DNA of 64,000 bases from Escherichia coli. GTDB lineage: Bacteria > Pseudomonadota > Gammaproteobacteria > Enterobacterales > Enterobacteriaceae. The notes beneath the pieces are model-generated. The model worked only from the letters and a program-made list of their open reading frames with translations, made no database searches and had not been told where the DNA came from. Shown here one piece after another: positions 4,836 through 54,359 of the stretch. Within the stretch, counting starts at the first letter, position 1. The number at the start of each line of letters is the position of its first letter. The stretch lies in assembly GCF_003334385.1 (NCBI RefSeq), contig NZ_QOWN01000010.1. One strand, 5' to 3'. The position numbers and the translations under genes were made by a program.

Positions 4836-5426
4836 ATGCAGTCTGAACGTATTTATTTGGTATGGGCCCATCCTCGTCATGATTCATTGACCGCACATAT
4901 TGCTGATGCGATCCATCAGCGGGCAATGGAGCGGAAAATACAGGTGACGGAACTCGATTTATATCGGCGTAATTTCAACCCAGTGATGACGCCGGAAGAT
5001 GAACCAGACTGGAAGAATATGGATAAACGTTATTCTCCAGAGGTTCATCAGCTTTATTCAGAGCTGCTTGAACATGACACGTTAGTGGTGGTTTTTCCTC
5101 TCTGGTGGTACAGCTTCCCGGCAATGCTAAAAGGATATATTGACAGAGTATGGAATAATGGGCTGGCTTATGGAGATGGGCACAAATTACCATTCAATAA
5201 AGTTCGTTGGGTGGCGCTGGTTGGAGGAGACAAAGAATCATTTGTCCAGATGGGCTGGGAAAAAAATATAAGCGATTATTTAAAAAATATGTGCAGTTAT
5301 CTTGGTATTGAAGATGCCGATGTCACTTTCTTGTGTAATACAGTGGTATTCGATGGGGAAGAACTTCACGCGAGCTATTATCAGTCGTTATTATCTCAGG
5401 TACGGGATATGGTAGATGCACTATAA
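4836..5426 (+). CDS. ycaK: Flavodoxin-like NAD(P)H dehydrogenase (quinone) family protein (KefF/MdaB-like)
   Basis: 196-aa ORF with flavodoxin-like fold signature (VWAHPRHDS, FPLWWYSFPAMLKGYIDRV). Confidence 0.85.
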   Translation: MQSERIYLVWAHPRHDSLTAHIADAIHQRAMERKIQVTELDLYRRNFNPVMTPEDEPDWKNMDKRYSPEVHQLYSELLEHDTLVVVFPLWWYSFPAMLKGYIDRVWNNGLAYGDGHKLPFNKVRWVALVGGDKESFVQMGWEKNISDYLKNMCSYLGIEDADVTFLCNTVVFDGEELHASYYQSLLSQVRDMVDAL

Positions 5427-8776: not shown

Positions 8777-9634
8777 TTAATGGTGGTCGTTTTCACGCAG
8801 GTAAATGACCCAGTATGTCAACCCAACCAACAAACCACCACCGATAATGTTGCCGATCGTAACCGGAATCAGGTTATCAGTGATGAAATTCATCACGGTC
8901 AGGTGAGAAAAATTTTCCGGTGCAGAACCGACTGCGGTCCAAAATTCCGGGGATGCGAAGTCGCGGATTACAATACCCATCGGGATCATAAACATGTTTG
9001 CGATACTGTGCTCAAAACCGCTGGCAACAAACATCGCGACCGGCAGCACCATAATGAACGCTTTGTCCATCAGGCTGCGGCCAGAATAACTCATCCATAC
9101 TGCCAGACATACCATCAGGTTTGCCAGGATACCAAGACAGACGGCCTCAATAAAAGTATGGTGCACTTTGTGGTCGGCGGTTTGTAGGACGTTTAGTCCC
9201 CATTGACCATTTGCGGTCATATACTCGCCGGAAAGCCACATTAAAAGTACAAACAGCAGTGCGCCGACCAGGTTGCCAAAATAGACATTTAGCCAGTTTT
9301 TCGCCAACTGACCCCAGGTGATGCGCCCACTCGCCTTAGCAACAACAATCAACACGGTGGAAGTAAAGAGATCGGCTCCGCAGACAACACAAAGAATCAG
9401 CCCCAGAGAGAAGCAAATGCCGCCAACCAGTTTTGCCATGCCGAAGGGCATTGTGCCTGTGCCAGTGGTTGCTGTGATATAGAAGACGAATGCGATTGAG
9501 ATGAAAACACCGGCGGTAATCGCCAGATAGAAAGTCTTAAGCGGATGTTTCGTTGCTTTATAGACACCCGCCTCTTCGGCCACTTTGGCCATTGCAGCAG
9601 GAAGTAAAAGATCAAAAGGGTTGTCAGCTTTCAC
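8777..9634 (-). CDS. focA: Formate channel FocA (FNT family)
   Basis: Hydrophobic FNT-family ORF; 285-aa product if initiated at GTG (plus-strand CAC 9632-9634) giving (M)KADNPFDLL…; ORF-track extension to 9808 lies in the promoter region. Confidence 0.9.
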   Translation of the reverse strand: MKADNPFDLLLPAAMAKVAEEAGVYKATKHPLKTFYLAITAGVFISIAFVFYITATTGTGTMPFGMAKLVGGICFSLGLILCVVCGADLFTSTVLIVVAKASGRITWGQLAKNWLNVYFGNLVGALLFVLLMWLSGEYMTANGQWGLNVLQTADHKVHHTFIEAVCLGILANLMVCLAVWMSYSGRSLMDKAFIMVLPVAMFVASGFEHSIANMFMIPMGIVIRDFASPEFWTAVGSAPENFSHLTVMNFITDNLIPVTIGNIIGGGLLVGLTYWVIYLRENDHH

Positions 9635-10038
9635 ACTAACTCTCTCTTTATTAAGTCGGCGACGAGATACTAACAAAGCATTATAGATGAGAAATTGATA
9701 TAGATCATATCTCGCCTGGCTTATAGGCCCGTAACTCGCATGGTTTTTATGCAAATACGGAGTAAATATTTGATTATCCAAATAAAAATAAATTTTAAAA
9801 ATTAACAAATGAGTTGAATTTTTTCCGCATCCTCCGCTAAAACAGTTACTTAAAAGGGAGCATCAGGCGAATAAAGTAACAATATCGATCGTATTTATTA
9901 AATACAAATTACCGATATTTAACCTTATAATTACAATTATTTTATTAATGCAAATATATGTAAAGCGGGGCATTAAAAAACGCCCCGTAATATAACTCAG
10001 ACTAATCATTAAGCCTACATTGCGTAGGCTATTTGATT
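9635..10038 (-). promoter_or_regulatory. focA-pflB multi-promoter regulatory region (AT-rich, ~400 bp)
   Basis: Long AT-rich non-coding interval upstream of focA; the pfl operon is known to be driven by multiple FNR/ArcA/IHF-dependent promoters. Confidence 0.6.
9695..9708 (-). promoter_or_regulatory. FNR-type site (TTGAT-N4-ATCAt)
   Basis: Plus strand TTGATatagATCAT at 9695-9708 matches the FNR consensus with one mismatch; lies upstream of focA. Confidence 0.5.
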
Positions 10039-11799
10039 TTATTTTGCCCAGAATGCTGCTTTGGCGCGCTGCAGCTTTTCGTAGGCCTTCAACAACGACT
10101 GATGTGCAGCAAACGCGTGCAGATCGCTATCTACCGGTTGCAGGCCGTAAAACGCCGCTTCGCCGCTCATTGCCGCACTGGCGGCTTCTACGGCATCTGC
10201 GCCGTACATGCGAACAAACGCATTCAGATATTGCAGCGGCTGGCGATCTTCTTCCTGTGCCAGTAATAACAACGTTTGCAGGCAGCGATAATAGTTGGCG
10301 CGTTCCGGACTAAATACTGATGAGTTAAACTCCATCGTCCATTCGGTCCAGACCAGAGCCTGTTCCAGATCGCCACCAGCCAGCGCCAGCATGGCTTTTA
10401 ATTCACCGATACGCAGGGTGTACCAACCGTTATCCGACCCGGTCGCCAGACCCAACAGCTCACGCACGCGGGTAAAGTCATCAAAACCTTCTTCATCCAG
10501 TTGCTCGATGAGGTTCAGGTAATCTTCTTTTTCCCACTCGCTGCCTGGTAGCGAAAGAATCGTTTCACGTAAATGGCTGCCCATACTGTTATTCGCGAGC
10601 CACAGATCTTCAGCCGGATAAATATCGGACATGCCAGGCACGATAATACGGCAAGCATAAACGCCCAGATGCTCGTAATCGGCAATATAAACTTCTTTAT
10701 CTTCTTTGTTGAAGATAGCCATCAGTGTGGCGAACTCTTCTTCCGTGGTGCCGGAGAAATTCCAGTCCACAAACGGATAATCGGCATCCTGCTTGAACAG
10801 GTCCCAGGAGATTAAACCGCTGGAATCGATAAAGTGCGTTTCGAGGTTGGTATGTTCAGCGACTTCTTCATCATCGAAGGTTGGCGGAGTAAACACATCC
10901 AAATCTTTCAGGCCACGACCTTGCAGCAGCTCGGTCACGGTACGTTCCAGTGCTACGCCAAAATCAGGATGCGCACCGAAAGAGGCAAAGCAGGTACCGT
11001 TAGCAGGATTGAACAGTACCACGCAAATCACCGGATACTGGCCGCCAAGCGAACCGTCATAAGCGAAGATTGGGAAACCCTCCGCTTCCAGCGTTTCGAT
11101 GGCTTCAACTACTGCTGGGTAACGCGCCAGCACGTCTGCCGGGATCTCTGGCAGGCTGATGCTTTCAGCAATAATGCGGTTTTTCACGTAGCGTTCGAAA
11201 ACTTCAGACAATCCCTGAACGCGTGCTTCGTTGCGGGTATTACCTGCGGACATACCGTTGGAGACGTACAGGTTACCAATGATATTCATCGGAATATAAA
11301 CGGTCTGATTGTCGGACTGACGCGTAAACGGCAGGCCGCAAATACCACGATCTTCGTTACCGGATTGTAGGTCAATCAGCATGCTGCCGGTCAGTTCATT
11401 CTCCGGATCATAAAACGCGCGCAGACGGTCATCGAGCAGCCCTTCTGGCACATCGTCATTTTCGGTCAGTGGGAACCATTTTTCGTTGGGATAATGCACG
11501 AACGGACCGTTGGCGATGGTTTCGCCCAGCCAGAAGTCCGCAAAAAAGTAGTTGGTTGAGAGACGCTCGAAATATTCACCGAGTGCAGAAGCCAGCGCCG
11601 CTTTCTTGGTTGCGCCTTTACCGTTGGTAAAACACAGTGCGCACTCTTTGTCGCGAATATGTACAGACCAGACGTTAGGCACGGGATTCAGCCAGGAGGC
11701 CTCTTCAATCTGAAAGCCGAGGTCTGAAAGTTTTTGCTGGAAGCGAGCGATGGAATCTTCCAGAGCGGCATCTTTGCCGGGGATAAATGTTTGCGTCAT
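10039..11799 (-). CDS. ycaO: YcaO-domain protein (ATP-dependent; linked to S12 beta-methylthiolation)
   Basis: 586 aa from MTQTFIPGKDAALEDS…; founding member of the YcaO family; synteny downstream of focA. Confidence 0.9.
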   Translation of the reverse strand: MTQTFIPGKDAALEDSIARFQQKLSDLGFQIEEASWLNPVPNVWSVHIRDKECALCFTNGKGATKKAALASALGEYFERLSTNYFFADFWLGETIANGPFVHYPNEKWFPLTENDDVPEGLLDDRLRAFYDPENELTGSMLIDLQSGNEDRGICGLPFTRQSDNQTVYIPMNIIGNLYVSNGMSAGNTRNEARVQGLSEVFERYVKNRIIAESISLPEIPADVLARYPAVVEAIETLEAEGFPIFAYDGSLGGQYPVICVVLFNPANGTCFASFGAHPDFGVALERTVTELLQGRGLKDLDVFTPPTFDDEEVAEHTNLETHFIDSSGLISWDLFKQDADYPFVDWNFSGTTEEEFATLMAIFNKEDKEVYIADYEHLGVYACRIIVPGMSDIYPAEDLWLANNSMGSHLRETILSLPGSEWEKEDYLNLIEQLDEEGFDDFTRVRELLGLATGSDNGWYTLRIGELKAMLALAGGDLEQALVWTEWTMEFNSSVFSPERANYYRCLQTLLLLAQEEDRQPLQYLNAFVRMYGADAVEAASAAMSGEAAFYGLQPVDSDLHAFAAHQSLLKAYEKLQRAKAAFWAK

Positions 11800-41060: not shown

Positions 41061-42149
41061 TTAGAACTGGTAAACGATACCCACAGCAACGGTGTCGTCT
41101 GAACCTACGCCCAGTTTGTTGTCAGAATCGATCTGGTTGATGATGTAGTCAACATAGGTGGACATGTTTTTGTTGAAGTAGTAGGTTGCGCCCACTTCAA
41201 AGTAGTTCACCAGATCAACATCACCGATACCTTCTACGTCTTTCGCTTTAGATTTGGTGTAAGCGATGGACGGACGCAGACCGAAATCGAACTGGTATTG
41301 CGCAACTAACAGAACGTCTTGCGTTTTGTTGGCGAAGCCGCTGGTGTTTGTAAATTTATTAGTGATCGGCGTAGCGTTACGGGTTTCACCGTAGTTCGCT
41401 GCCAGGTAGATGTTGTTCGCGTCGTACTTCAGACCAGTAGCCCACTGTTCAGCTTTTTTACCGTTGCCAAGAGGTTGAGCTTCTTGCAGGTTGGTACGGT
41501 CAGCTGCACCATAAGCACCAACGATACCAAAGCCTTCGTATTCGTAGCTGATAGAACCGCCAACACCGTCGCCGTTAGAACGGCGTGCAGTGTCACGCTC
41601 GTTTTTACCCAGGTACTGAACAGCGAAGTTCAGGCCATCAACCAGACCAAAGAAGTTGGAGTTACGATAGGTAGCAACGCCGCCAACACGACCAACGAAG
41701 AAGTCATCGCTGTATGCAGTATCACCACCAAATTCTGGCAGCATATCGGTGTAACCCAGTGCATCATAAACCACACCGTAGTTACGGCCGTAATCGAAAG
41801 AACCAACGTCAGCGTATTTAAGACCCGCGAATGCCAGACGCGTTTTGTTACCAGTTTGAGCGTCAGCGCCTTCAGAGTTGTTACCCTGGAAGTTATATTC
41901 CCACTGACCATAACCGGTCAGATCGGAATTGATTTGAGTTTCCCCTTTAAAACCAAGACGGGCATAGGTCATGTCGCCATTGCCACCGTAACTGTTTTCA
42001 CCGTTACCCTTGGAAAAATAATGCAGACCAACAGCTTTACCGTACAGATCTACTTTGTTGCCATCTTTGTTATAGATTTCTGCAGCGTTTGCAGTACCTG
42101 CTACTAACAGAGCAGGGACGATCACTGCCAGAATATTGCGCTTCATCAT
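41061..42149 (-). CDS. ompF: Outer membrane porin F
   Basis: 362 aa; signal peptide [22 protein letters not shown]; porin beta-barrel ending in …VGIVYQF. Confidence 0.98.
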
Positions 42150-42299
42150 TATTTATTACCCTCATGGTTTTTTTTATGACACCTGCCACTGCCGTCAATA
42201 AGTTCTGTCAATAAAAATTTACGGAACTATTGATGAGAGTTTGGTGTCTTTATGTGTCTGCAGGCATCTTTCCATTCAAACTAACGTTTCGCTACCGTG

Positions 42300-42359
42300 A
42301 AAGTGCTACAAAGATAAAGATTTGGTTTCAAAAAGAAAAAATATGTAACCAAAAGTAAA
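42300..42359 (-). promoter_or_regulatory. OmpR binding sites F3-F2-F1 of the ompF promoter
   Basis: Minus strand reads TTTACTTTTGGTTACATATT / TTTTCTTTTTGAAACCAAAT / CTTTATCTTTGTAGCACTTT, matching the published F1/F2/F3 sequences from memory. Confidence 0.7.
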
Positions 42360-42619
42360 ATTTAAGGAACTTTGTGAACACCGTCATATTTCCATAGAGA
42401 CGTGATGATATTTACAGCAATTTTAATCTATTTATATGATTTCCTTATATTTAAATTAACTAAACGGAAATTTTGTTTCTGATGGAAACTTTATCGACCT
42501 GGCACAAAATCTTCTTTCAGACATCCAGAATGCCAAAAAATAGTATGAAAATTGTGCTATTAGCTAAGAAAAAACTAATCCGCAATAAGAATGCGGATTA
42601 GTTTTTGCGCGTAAATGTT

Positions 42620-52111: not shown

Positions 52112-52679
52112 GGGCATTACCTCGCAGAGACAGAAGGTCAGGAACCTGAACATCGCGGCGGTGCAATGCCTGCCAGAAAGTTTCTAGCGCGGTATCAAGA
52201 CGGGTTTGCAGATTTGGCGTGAACTGGGGTCTGTGATGGTAATCAATTACTTGTGAGTCATCGGCAAACACGCCGTGCAGGATCTCCTGAGCTTTCAGTG
52301 CGCTTAAAACTGGTTTAAGGGCATAATCGACCGCCAGCAGATGGGCCACGGTACCGCCCGTCGCCAGCGGTAGCACCACTTTGCCTTGCAAAGCGCGTTC
52401 TGGCAGCAGGTCGAGCAGGGTTTTCAACGCACCGGAATAGGCGGCTTTATACACAGGCGTGGCGACAATCAGCCCATCGGCCTGTTGCAGCTGTTCGGTG
52501 AAGGTCTTGAGTGCCGGACTATCGAAACGAGCATAAAGTAGATCTTCCGGGGCGAAGTTTTGCAGATTCCAGTGATAAACCTCTACATCCAGGCCATTTA
52601 GTTTTTCCCGCGCATATTCCAGCAAGGAGCTGGAGCGAGAAGGAAAGCGAGGACTACCCGCCAGGGTGATGACACGCAT
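52104..52679 (-). CDS. ssuE: NADPH-dependent FMN reductase
   Basis: 191 aa; MRVITLAGSPRFPSRSS…; first gene of the ssu operon. Confidence 0.95.
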   Translation of the reverse strand: MRVITLAGSPRFPSRSSSLLEYAREKLNGLDVEVYHWNLQNFAPEDLLYARFDSPALKTFTEQLQQADGLIVATPVYKAAYSGALKTLLDLLPERALQGKVVLPLATGGTVAHLLAVDYALKPVLSALKAQEILHGVFADDSQVIDYHHRPQFTPNLQTRLDTALETFWQALHRRDVQVPDLLSLRGNAHA

Positions 52680-53035
52680 ACTCTCTCCTTATAACCAATT
52701 GTTCTTTTTTTTGTTAACATTGATAACAATTCGGTCAGTCTGTCGGAGAGACAAGAAAATTCCAAATATAAATTTTGTGTATCTTTTTCTGAAAATAAAC
52801 TAAAGAAAGGGCTTTATATATCACGCATATTTATTTATTGGATAGTCATTAGATGTTGAATCAATGAATTACTCGTTCAGTTAATATTTAAATATTCATG
52901 AAATCTATAAATTAAAGATTTGTCACTTATTGGATTTAGTATGCTTGATTTAAATGGCGGACAATTATTGTTATTATTAAGTCTAATGTCATTTAAAGGC
53001 ATTATCATATTTACGAAGAGATCAGGATGATAACG

Positions 53036-53657: not shown

Positions 53658-54359
53658 ATGAAAACTTGCATAACAAAGGGAATTGTGACCGTAAGTTTAA
53701 CGGCAATATTACTCAGCTGCTCATCCGCATGGGCGGCAGGTAAAGGCGGGATTGGACTTGCAGCAACACGTCTTGTTTATTCAGAAGGTGAAGAGCAAAT
53801 TTCACTGGGTGTACGTAACACCAGTCTGGATGTTCCTTATCTTATTCAGTCATGGGTGATGACCCCAGATAATAAAAAATCAGCAGACTTTATTATTACA
53901 CCACCGCTATTTGTGCTGAATCCGGCAAATGAGAATCTGTTACGCATTATGTACATTGGAGCGCCGTTGGCGAAAGACAGAGAAACCCTTTTCTTCACTA
54001 GCGTACGGGCAGTCCCTTCAACAACGAAGCGGAAAGAGGGAAATACCCTGAAGATTGCCACACAAAGCGTCATCAAACTTTTCTGGCGACCAAAAGGTTT
54101 AGCGTATCCCTTAGGCGAGGCTCCGGCGAAACTGCGTTGCACTTCGTCAGCTGACATGGTTACGGTCAGTAACCCAACACCTTATTTCATTACCCTGACA
54201 GACCTGAAAATAGGTGGAAAAGTAGTTAAAAATCAAATGATTTCCCCCTTTGATAAATACCAATTTTCTCTGCCAAAGGGGGCCAAAAATAGCAGCGTAA
54301 CGTATCGAACCATCAATGACTACGGGGCGGAAACGCCGCAACTCAACTGTAAATCGTAA
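53658..54359 (+). CDS. elfD: Periplasmic fimbrial chaperone (PapD-like)
   Basis: 233 aa; signal peptide. Confidence 0.88.
   Translation: MKTCITKGIVTVSLTAILLSCSSAWAAGKGGIGLAATRLVYSEGEEQISLGVRNTSLDVPYLIQSWVMTPDNKKSADFIITPPLFVLNPANENLLRIMYIGAPLAKDRETLFFTSVRAVPSTTKRKEGNTLKIATQSVIKLFWRPKGLAYPLGEAPAKLRCTSSADMVTVSNPTPYFITLTDLKIGGKVVKNQMISPFDKYQFSLPKGAKNSSVTYRTINDYGAETPQLNCKS

Follow-up and report, generated by a model that had tools for sequence, protein, structure and literature searches.

The window analysed here is a stretch of 64,000 nucleotides of Escherichia coli DNA. On its minus strand, direct reading together with the list of open reading frames (ORFs) gives the order ycaO (stop codon TAA at 10041..10039), a gap of 404 bp (10038..9635), focA, pflB and pflA. 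The pflB start lies 54 nt past the focA stop and pflA comes next, which is the operon context focA-pflB-pflA, in agreement with the annotation. Megablast of positions 9400-10250 returned a match in all 5,426 complete E. coli genomes, with a best identity of 99.9%; focA and ycaO are annotated beneath it. The gap, or spacer, has a GC content of 31.2%, against 50.2% for the window, and equally AT-rich 404-bp segments amount to 0.36%.

We identify this AT-rich spacer, with a probability of about 95%, as DNA already described, namely the promoter-regulatory region and leader of the pyruvate formate-lyase operon focA-pflB of E. coli. The locus is that of the K-12 focA-pflB (pfl operon) region of Sawers and colleagues, which has several promoters and is controlled by FNR, ArcA and IHF; the FNR 14-mer, the four-repeat ArcA site and the start region show no difference from the published K-12 sequences. 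From K-12 MG1655 the spacer departs at two places only: the T-run near 9980, in the loop of the ycaO terminator hairpin, is one T shorter, and a G replaces T at 9849, within the motif TTAATTAAC. A preliminary description of this DNA had taken the roughly 400 bp of AT-rich DNA ahead of focA for the focA-pflB control region, which length, composition and annotation bear out. It had also called the DNA non-coding promoter DNA: a promoter region it is, but much of the spacer is transcribed as a long leader with a 30S binding site.

For comparison, one genome per species was scanned for the codons of KADNPFDLL, the start of FocA, with the start codon and the third codon positions left free. The scan yielded 108 loci. 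About 104 are genuine focA genes, which come from Citrobacter, Salmonella, Klebsiella, Enterobacter, Kluyvera, Buttiauxella, Hafnia, Edwardsiella, Serratia, Sodalis and other genera; species with a different FocA N-terminus (Yersinia, Vibrio, Pasteurellaceae) were left out by the pattern. Motif-position counts and the conservation map refer to 97 species with distinct sequences, and hairpin statistics to 93 distinct sequences. The map resolves the spacer into discrete blocks. From approximately 9727 to 9606 it is nearly invariant, a stretch that holds the FNR site, a TATAAT hexamer, an extended -10 element, a weak Shine-Dalgarno (SD) motif and GUGUGA. Rfam, searched permissively with both strands of 9400-10300, gave no family at E values up to 1. 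The features are collected in Table 1.

Table 1 Features of the ycaO-focA spacer and of the genes that follow it, in window positions.
Feature	Position	Strand	Basis
pflB, 760 aa	6440..8722	-	ORF list
focA coding sequence, 285 aa, formate channel	8777..9634	-	NCBIfam, PDB identity, RefSeq
ycaO-focA spacer: promoter-regulatory region and long leader of the focA-pflB operon	9635..10038	-	composition, flanking annotation
GUGUGA: start GTG 9634..9632 overlapped by the out-of-frame GTG 9636..9634, which runs into TGA	9631..9636	-	direct reading
Weak Shine-Dalgarno GAGAGAG (three overlapping GAG)	9640..9646	-	invariant in nearly all species
Extended -10 TGtTAGTAT, FNR-dependent proximal promoter (Sawers' P6)	9667..9675	-	distance from FNR centre, conservation
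Perfect TATAAT, lying 13 bp ahead of the P6 -10	9680..9685	-	conservation
FNR binding site TTGATatagATCAT (ATGATctatATCAA in focA direction)	9695..9708	.	motif, published ChIP-seq, conservation
Hairpin in the long leader upstream of the FNR site, stems CCGUAUUUGCAU / loop AAAAACC / AUGCGAG-U-UACGG	9729..9760	-	covariation
A/T tract (9803-9780), then IHF-consensus core AATCAAatatTTA (9775-9763)	9763..9803	-	conservation
Upstream SD-like GGAGG, candidate core of the published 'focA-213' 30S binding site	9831..9835	-	position, conservation
TTAAGTAAC with the conserved TTAATTAAC motif, private T-to-G at 9849	9845..9853	-	comparison with K-12 and FORC_069
ArcA binding site, four direct repeats	9894..9947	-	published ArcA ChIP
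Sigma-70 promoter-like TTTACA-17-AATAAT, candidate distal promoter, leader about 295 nt	9936..9964	-	promoter scan, SELEX
Terminator-type hairpin of ycaO, stems 9987-9982 and 9971-9966; TATATT 9994-9989 ahead	9966..9994	-	conserved stems
Perfect 7-bp inverted repeat AGCCTACgcaatGTAGGCT, just past the ycaO stop codon	10012..10030	.	terminator-like scan

Reading of the minus strand places AAA GCT GAC AAC CCT TTT GAT, or KADNPFD, directly after the GTG of focA. The codon before the lysine is GTG in 107 of the 110 matched loci, i.e. in all 107 intact ones; the remaining three are two chance matches outside Enterobacterales and a Sodalis endosymbiont with ACG, whose locus is probably a decaying gene. 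Between this GTG and the nearest upstream stop, 49 of 104 species have no ATG, GTG or TTG, and in 23 species the in-frame stop lies only five codons upstream. Conservation runs on continuously across the GTG. Identity at third codon positions is 0.91-1.0 up to codon 8 and 0.27-0.69 in codons 9-14; being frozen to codon 8 and looser thereafter, these positions suggest a constraint at the nucleotide level that extends about as far as a ribosome footprint. Comparison of sequences is enough by itself to settle the start codon. GUG was reportedly assigned as the focA start by Suppmann and Sawers in 1994, and its change to AUG is said to have raised FocA about 20-fold in work by Beyer et al. in 2013.

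The protein read from this start scores 634.3 bits against the NCBIfam equivalog NF008069 (cut-off 440), residues 1-285 covering profile positions 1-285, and 426.7 bits against TIGR04060 (cut-off 290.1), where the alignment begins at residue 14 only. It is identical over 285 aa to PDB entries 3KCU, 3KCV, 9G49 and 9I3K. The equivalog match, the PDB identity and the operon context agree in assigning the product to FocA, the formate channel of the formate/nitrite transporter family. RefSeq gives focA as 858 nt from GTG in K-12 MG1655 (b0904, 953609-954466) and in a PGAP-annotated strain, so that the GTG at 9632-9634, already proposed in the preliminary description, is upheld by the annotation, by every intact locus and by a profile filled from residue 1. 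A 2025 structural paper shows MKADNPFD... as FocA residues 1-35, with the N-terminus resolved almost entirely by cryo-EM and cross-linked to PflB. Since PDB and peptide constructs are designed from annotation, they are consistent with the GTG start and are no independent proof of the native N-terminus. Initiator-tRNA-dependent 30S toeprinting was reported at the focA start region in a 30S-seq preprint (bioRxiv 10.1101/2025.04.04.647229).

Two other starts have to be weighed. An upstream ATG had been proposed at 9806-9808 as the competing start; these bases are TTG on the minus strand (CAA on the plus strand), and the 343-aa extension in the ORF list is TTG-initiated. Were focA to begin at this TTG (9808..9806), the protein of 343 aa would carry a 58-residue N-terminal extension, and the frame is indeed open from the TTG to the GTG in the window strain, within a transcribed long leader that includes the TTG. 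However, the FNR site, the two -10 elements and the start of the proximal transcript all lie within the extension, and the short FNR-dependent mRNA is therefore unable to encode the 343-aa form. In many species, stops stand in frame 5-13 codons upstream of the GTG, besides the 49 of 104 that lack an alternative start, and conservation upstream of the GTG is site-by-site, without codon periodicity. As the 285-aa protein fills the FocA equivalog profile end to end and RefSeq leaves the TTG unused, we hold initiation there to be next to impossible.

Initiation at the first in-frame ATG (Met15, 9592..9590), which would turn residues 1-14 into an untranslated leader, is very improbable, although ATG is the commonest start codon and TIGR04060 aligns only from residue 14. 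Against it, the amino acids at residues 2-14 are conserved although the third codon positions begin to vary at codon 9, which is a coding signature; NF008069 aligns from residue 1, and the N-terminal segment is cross-linked to PflB and resolved in cryo-EM (2025 structural paper). Moreover, the initiator-tRNA 30S toeprint falls at the GUG region, and the SD there is needed for expression (bioRxiv 10.1101/2025.04.04.647229). In the window, the frame ahead of the GTG reads without a single Met, and the first in-frame ATG is Met15, inside FocA; an ATG-only caller would therefore begin at Met15 and shorten the protein. The remark that ATG-only calling mis-annotates focA is thus right about a wrong start but not about its nature, which would be a truncation at Met15 and not an upstream extension. 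The GTG start itself is established knowledge and carries no new annotation warning, as standard pipelines call GTG already.

In most of about 100 species, the half-sites ATGAT and ATCAA of the FNR site are found 66-69 bp ahead of the start codon. In the window, TTGATATAGATCAT at 9695-9708 on the plus strand agrees with TTGAT-N4-ATCAA at 9 of 10 specified positions. Taken alone, such a match is not above chance: with at most one mismatch the pattern was observed 4 times in the window against 2.75 expected, a count reached by 29 of 100 shuffles and hence not significant. In a region of 31% GC, the 14-mer could be read as a chance match in AT-rich DNA, with anaerobic control exerted elsewhere. 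The reality of the site rests, since the match count does not carry it, on position, conservation and published binding data, and these make a chance match highly unlikely. The E. coli FNR ChIP-seq study has the identical 14-mer at 953750 (U00096.2), which is window position 9695, beneath its focA peak; there the site has the position -40.5 relative to a mapped transcript start, the class II distance, and focA-pflB is classed as directly FNR-activated (PMC3688515). Expression depends on fnr, with values of 0.145 for focA and 0.21 for pflB in the differential-expression table of the same study (PMC3688515). Between the half-sites, kept at fixed distance across genera, the central 4 bp take at least ten different tetranucleotides; conserved half-sites around a variable spacer are the pattern expected of a working dimer binding site. 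The FNR site that the preliminary description had recognised at 9695-9708 accordingly stands, on an exact 14-mer under a published peak and half-sites conserved in about 100 species. So does its statement that complex anaerobic regulation of the operon is known, given that occupancy by FNR and by ArcA is published and that sigma-70 has two peaks, at 953695 and 954032, which increase under anaerobiosis (window about 9640 and 9977; PMC3688515).

Downstream of the FNR site, TGnTAG(T/A)AT occurs at a fixed distance in 96 of 97 species. By arithmetic, TAGTAT (9672-9667) occupies -12 to -7 if transcription starts at 9661/9660, the TGt ahead of it makes an extended -10, and the place of the hexamer is the one demanded by a start at 40.5-41.5 bp from the centre of the FNR site. 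We infer from these distances that the proximal transcript would start at 9661/9660, with a leader of about 27 nt. On direct reading, the first start-type codons of such a transcript would be GUGUG at 9636-9632. The upstream hexamer is equally constant, TATA(A/C)T being found at a fixed distance in 95 of 97 species. It is probably an overlapping FNR-independent promoter, which we take to be promoter '6A' of Kaiser and Sawers (1997). Promoters 6 and 7 of the operon were reportedly the subject of a paper by Sawers and Bock in 1989.

The proximal promoter would share with the class II FNR promoters of dmsA, narG, nirB and yfiD a TTGAT-N4-ATCAA-type site centred about 40.5-41.5 bp upstream of the start; as in these, the FNR site would replace the -35 element, and sigma-70 occupancy rises anaerobically. 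Unlike them, focA has its promoter within a much longer control region with ArcA and IHF-type sites, has a second promoter some 270-320 bp upstream, and has a perfect TATAAT overlapping the promoter, 13 bp upstream of the working -10.

Farther upstream, an ArcA ChIP study lists the exact 54-nt sequence (953949-954002, U00096.2) beneath its peak 'focA2'. The site is unchanged at 9947-9894 in the window, and its cores TGTAA, GTTAA and GGTAA are conserved across genera. It consists of TGTTA-type repeats with a spacing of about 11 bp and lies under the in vivo peak, binding itself being published data. A second FNR site for a distal promoter was sought here as well: TTAAATATCGGTAA (9922-9909) matches at 5 of 10 positions only and falls inside the ArcA repeats, and is not a convincing site.

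The only promoter-like match of our scan was TTTACA-17-AATAAT, with 10 of 12 positions; its hexamers are poorly conserved outside E. coli. Genomic SELEX of the RpoD holoenzyme lists the same hexamers for the focA-ycaO spacer. Next to it, on the ycaO side, is a hairpin with conserved GGGGC/GCCCC stems and variable loops, followed by a T-run in most genera that is lost in E. coli. Because of the T-run elsewhere, we read the hairpin at 9987-9966 as the ycaO terminator. The inverted repeat at 10012-10030 is present in E. coli and, in similar form, in Citrobacter koseri, without wider conservation.

TATATT (9994-9989), present in 73 of 97 species, lies just upstream of G9981. This G corresponds to the focA transcript start at 954814, with a leader of 348 nt, in the table of a preprint (bioRxiv 10.1101/2025.04.04.647229), and the second anaerobic sigma-70 peak (954032, about 9977) is close by. 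Distal starts near 9981 or near 9929 are thus candidates, each with outside support. Another, near 9874, with GATATT as -10, was rejected: the hexamer is not conserved. The ArcA site lies downstream of, or across, the candidate distal starts, which is odd for an activator.

Between the distal elements and the FNR site, the A/T tract at 9803-9780 is nearly invariant, and the core WATCAANNNNTTR recurs at an unchanged distance in 56 of 97 species (77 of 97 when the pattern is relaxed). Core and upstream A/T tract together agree with the IHF consensus and make this a putative IHF site. The region 9763..9803 is presumably the one for which Sirko et al. described IHF binding in 1993.

The translation signals at the start region are weak. 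Mutation of the SD abolished 30S binding there and focA-lacZ expression (bioRxiv 10.1101/2025.04.04.647229), and the proximal leader with the start region is no more stably folded than its shuffled versions (z = +1.38). In nearly all Enterobacteriaceae examined, GUGUGA is kept entire and unchanged. In a list of gtGTG-starting genes (Nucleic Acids Res 2022, PMC9841429), focA appears as initiating from the second GUG of GUGUG, and so shares this mode of initiation with other overlapping start sites. It differs from them in that its out-of-frame GUG meets a stop at once: a preprint supplement notes the first GUG as out of frame with UGA directly after it (bioRxiv 10.1101/2025.04.04.647229). With the UGA in this place, no alternative product is possible from focA.

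A second ribosome contact lies far upstream. GGAGG, at -201, is the only strong SD-like motif of the spacer. In 53 of 97 species (70 of 97 when relaxed), a strong SD-like motif occurs 200-205 nt ahead of the start codon, and almost nowhere else in the spacer. The preprint describes a 30S site with its 5' end 213 nt upstream of the focA start that is independent of initiator tRNA and needs a strong SD motif, and reports that focA-lacZ fell about 10-fold when this upstream motif was mutated (bioRxiv 10.1101/2025.04.04.647229). From the -213 coordinate, GGAGG at 9835-9831 is most naturally taken as its focA-213 site. An ATG follows GGAGG directly, with zero spacing, and is not conserved. The 11-codon upstream ORF ATGCGGAAAAAATTCAACTCATTTGTTAATTTTTAA that it would open was rejected as a gene on the zero SD-to-ATG spacing and the absence of the ATG from Salmonella and Citrobacter. 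In the comparison with the uRBS or standby sites of focA and skp, the strong GGAGG of focA stands some 200 nt ahead of the weak GUG start region and is among the most distant sites reported, whereas no more than 14 nt separate the skp site from the true SD (bioRxiv 10.1101/2025.04.04.647229). The conservation of the position of the focA motif (53-70 of 97 species) comes from the present comparison.

Taken together, these elements suggest the following course of events. Under anaerobiosis, FNR binds ATGATctatATCAA (9708-9695), which would be centred about 41 bp upstream of the proximal start (around 9661), the position of a class II activator. The resulting mRNA would present GUGUG after its short leader, and FocA would be translated from the GTG by way of the weak GAGAGAG in an unstructured start region. 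It is possible that this weak SD and start hold the membrane channel FocA low relative to PflB. Upstream, the four-repeat ArcA site, the IHF-consensus site, through which we infer a role of IHF, and at least one distal promoter would add a transcript with a leader of about 300-350 nt, in which GGAGG may capture 30S subunits and raise focA translation.

The FNR site and the GTG start are already known from the literature and from standard annotation, and focA-pflB is a textbook case of layered anaerobic control, so that their confirmation adds nothing new to biology. What is new, as a comparison of sequences, is that GTG always precedes KADNPFD in about 100 Enterobacterales species, together with the FNR half-site spacing and the 49 of 104 species without another start. 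A first reading from sequence alone could recognise a real regulatory site and a non-ATG start. The locus may serve as a calibration case, in which a statistically ordinary motif is functional and is recognised by its position, by kept half-sites around a variable spacer and by published occupancy. Small leads for FocA dosage control come from a covarying hairpin, the frozen synonymous sites at GUGUGA, the SD-like motif upstream, conserved in one specific position, and the private substitution within TTAATTAAC. It is conceivable, but rather doubtful, that the focA leader holds undescribed cis elements (the hairpin at 9760-9729, and GUGUGA with synonymous sites frozen to codon 8) that would form, with GGAGG, a translational throttle setting the FocA:PflB ratio, and that the T-to-G change at 9849 could alter control or ArcA binding.

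The stems of the hairpin at 9760-9729 differ by genus and yet stay complementary (CCGTA/TACGG, CCGCA/TGCGG, CCACA/TGTGG, CTGAAAA/TTTTCAG). When the 93 distinct sequences are compared with the structure derived from E. coli, 63% of cells are paired, against 55% in shuffles. The covariation score is 0.284, against 0.189 in shuffles, none of 500 of which reaches 0.284, and it is at most 0.162 with the partners slid. Comparison of the strands gives 62 G-U cells against 86 A-C cells and does not clearly favour either strand. RNAalifold, applied to the full set of 93, missed the hairpin, since it is absent from several genera. As a terminator it was rejected, there being no U-run after it on either strand.

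At 9849 the window has G, and both K-12 and FORC_069 have T. Among 5,406 E. coli genomes there is no exact match to the 71 nt around this position, the best being 70 of 71. The conserved TTAATTAAC is the reverse complement of the ArcA-box-like GTTAATTAA; the ArcA-box consensus reportedly goes back to Lynch and Lin in 1996. Of 97 other species, 63 have TTAATTAAC in this place.

Conservation at the DNA level is very high around the start of focA (window numbering, as throughout). From GAGAGAG to codon 8, counted from the GTG start, the sequence is unchanged in nearly all of about 100 Enterobacterales species, represented by one genome each, synonymous third positions included. Third-position identity is 0.91-1.0 up to codon 8, in contrast to 0.27-0.69 for codons 9-14. 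The conserved segment includes GUGUGA, in which an out-of-frame GUG overlaps the true start and is directly followed by UGA. The sole true focA locus of the species set with a start codon other than GTG is that of Candidatus Sodalis endolongispinus (L057, match 5137-5162), where ACG takes its place and GAGAGAG is replaced by GAAAGAG; both changes fit the gene decay of an endosymbiont.

Features of the focA spacer and start region
Feature	Position	Strand	Remark
focA start region, GAGAGAG to codon 8	9606-9648	minus	conserved at the DNA level
Perfect TATAAT	9680-9685	minus	precedes the FNR-dependent promoter's working -10 by 13 bp
Predicted hairpin	9729-9760	minus or plus	flanked by the IHF-type site and the FNR site
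11-codon ORF ATGCGGAAAAAATTCAACTCATTTGTTAATTTTTAA	9795-9830	minus	starts right after the upstream GGAGG, spacing zero
Motif TTAAGTAAC	9845-9853	minus	contains the apparently strain-specific base at 9849
ycaO terminator hairpin with TATATT upstream	9966-9994	minus	stems conserved across genera

The second -10 hexamer, TATAAT, is shared by 95 of 97 species; the -35 position that goes with it coincides in part with the FNR site. Presumably the hexamer is part of an overlapping, FNR-occluded promoter. The FNR consensus, with one mismatch allowed, has three further matches in the window, at 1979-1992, 52233-52246 and 54250-54263.

Across genera, the stems of the predicted hairpin vary in sequence and retain their complementarity, with a covariation of 0.284 versus 0.189 for shuffles and at most 0.162 for slid partners. 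The hairpin has no terminator-like tail and is not present in Klebsiella, Raoultella, Hafnia or Serratia in the cross-genus comparison; no Rfam family was found for it.

Position 9849 carries G in the window strain and T in both K-12 and FORC_069. Among 5,406 E. coli genomes, the top match to the 71 nt surrounding it is 70/71, and T apparently stands there in all other complete E. coli genomes, judging from these sequences. Comparison with 97 other Enterobacterales species shows that 63 keep a motif containing this position, TTAATTAAC; this motif is the reverse complement of an ArcA-box-like GTTAATTAA. Two nucleotides downstream of the 9849 motif begins the 30S-protected site published for the focA leader (bioRxiv 10.1101/2025.04.04.647229).

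The 11-codon ORF was considered as a gene and is probably not one, because Salmonella and Citrobacter lack its ATG. Inside it, TTCAAC (9817-9812) is nearly invariant across genera.

At the ycaO end of the spacer, the terminator hairpin retains its GGGGC/GCCCC stems across genera, directly downstream of the conserved TATATT, and the T-run that follows the hairpin elsewhere is lost in E. coli. The distal focA transcript start, K-12 954814 (bioRxiv 10.1101/2025.04.04.647229), falls on G9981, the first base of the loop, which has 6 T in the window versus 7 in K-12. A perfect 7-bp inverted repeat, AGCCTACgcaatGTAGGCT (10012-10030), lies directly after the ycaO stop codon; it occurs in E. coli and in similar form in Citrobacter koseri, with no wider conservation.

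Two further stretches of the window, at about 42000-42400 and about 52500-53000, are as AT-rich as the focA spacer; they probably represent additional large regulatory regions or DNA gained by horizontal transfer. The minimum GC content of any 404-bp segment in the window is 28.2%, at 52671.
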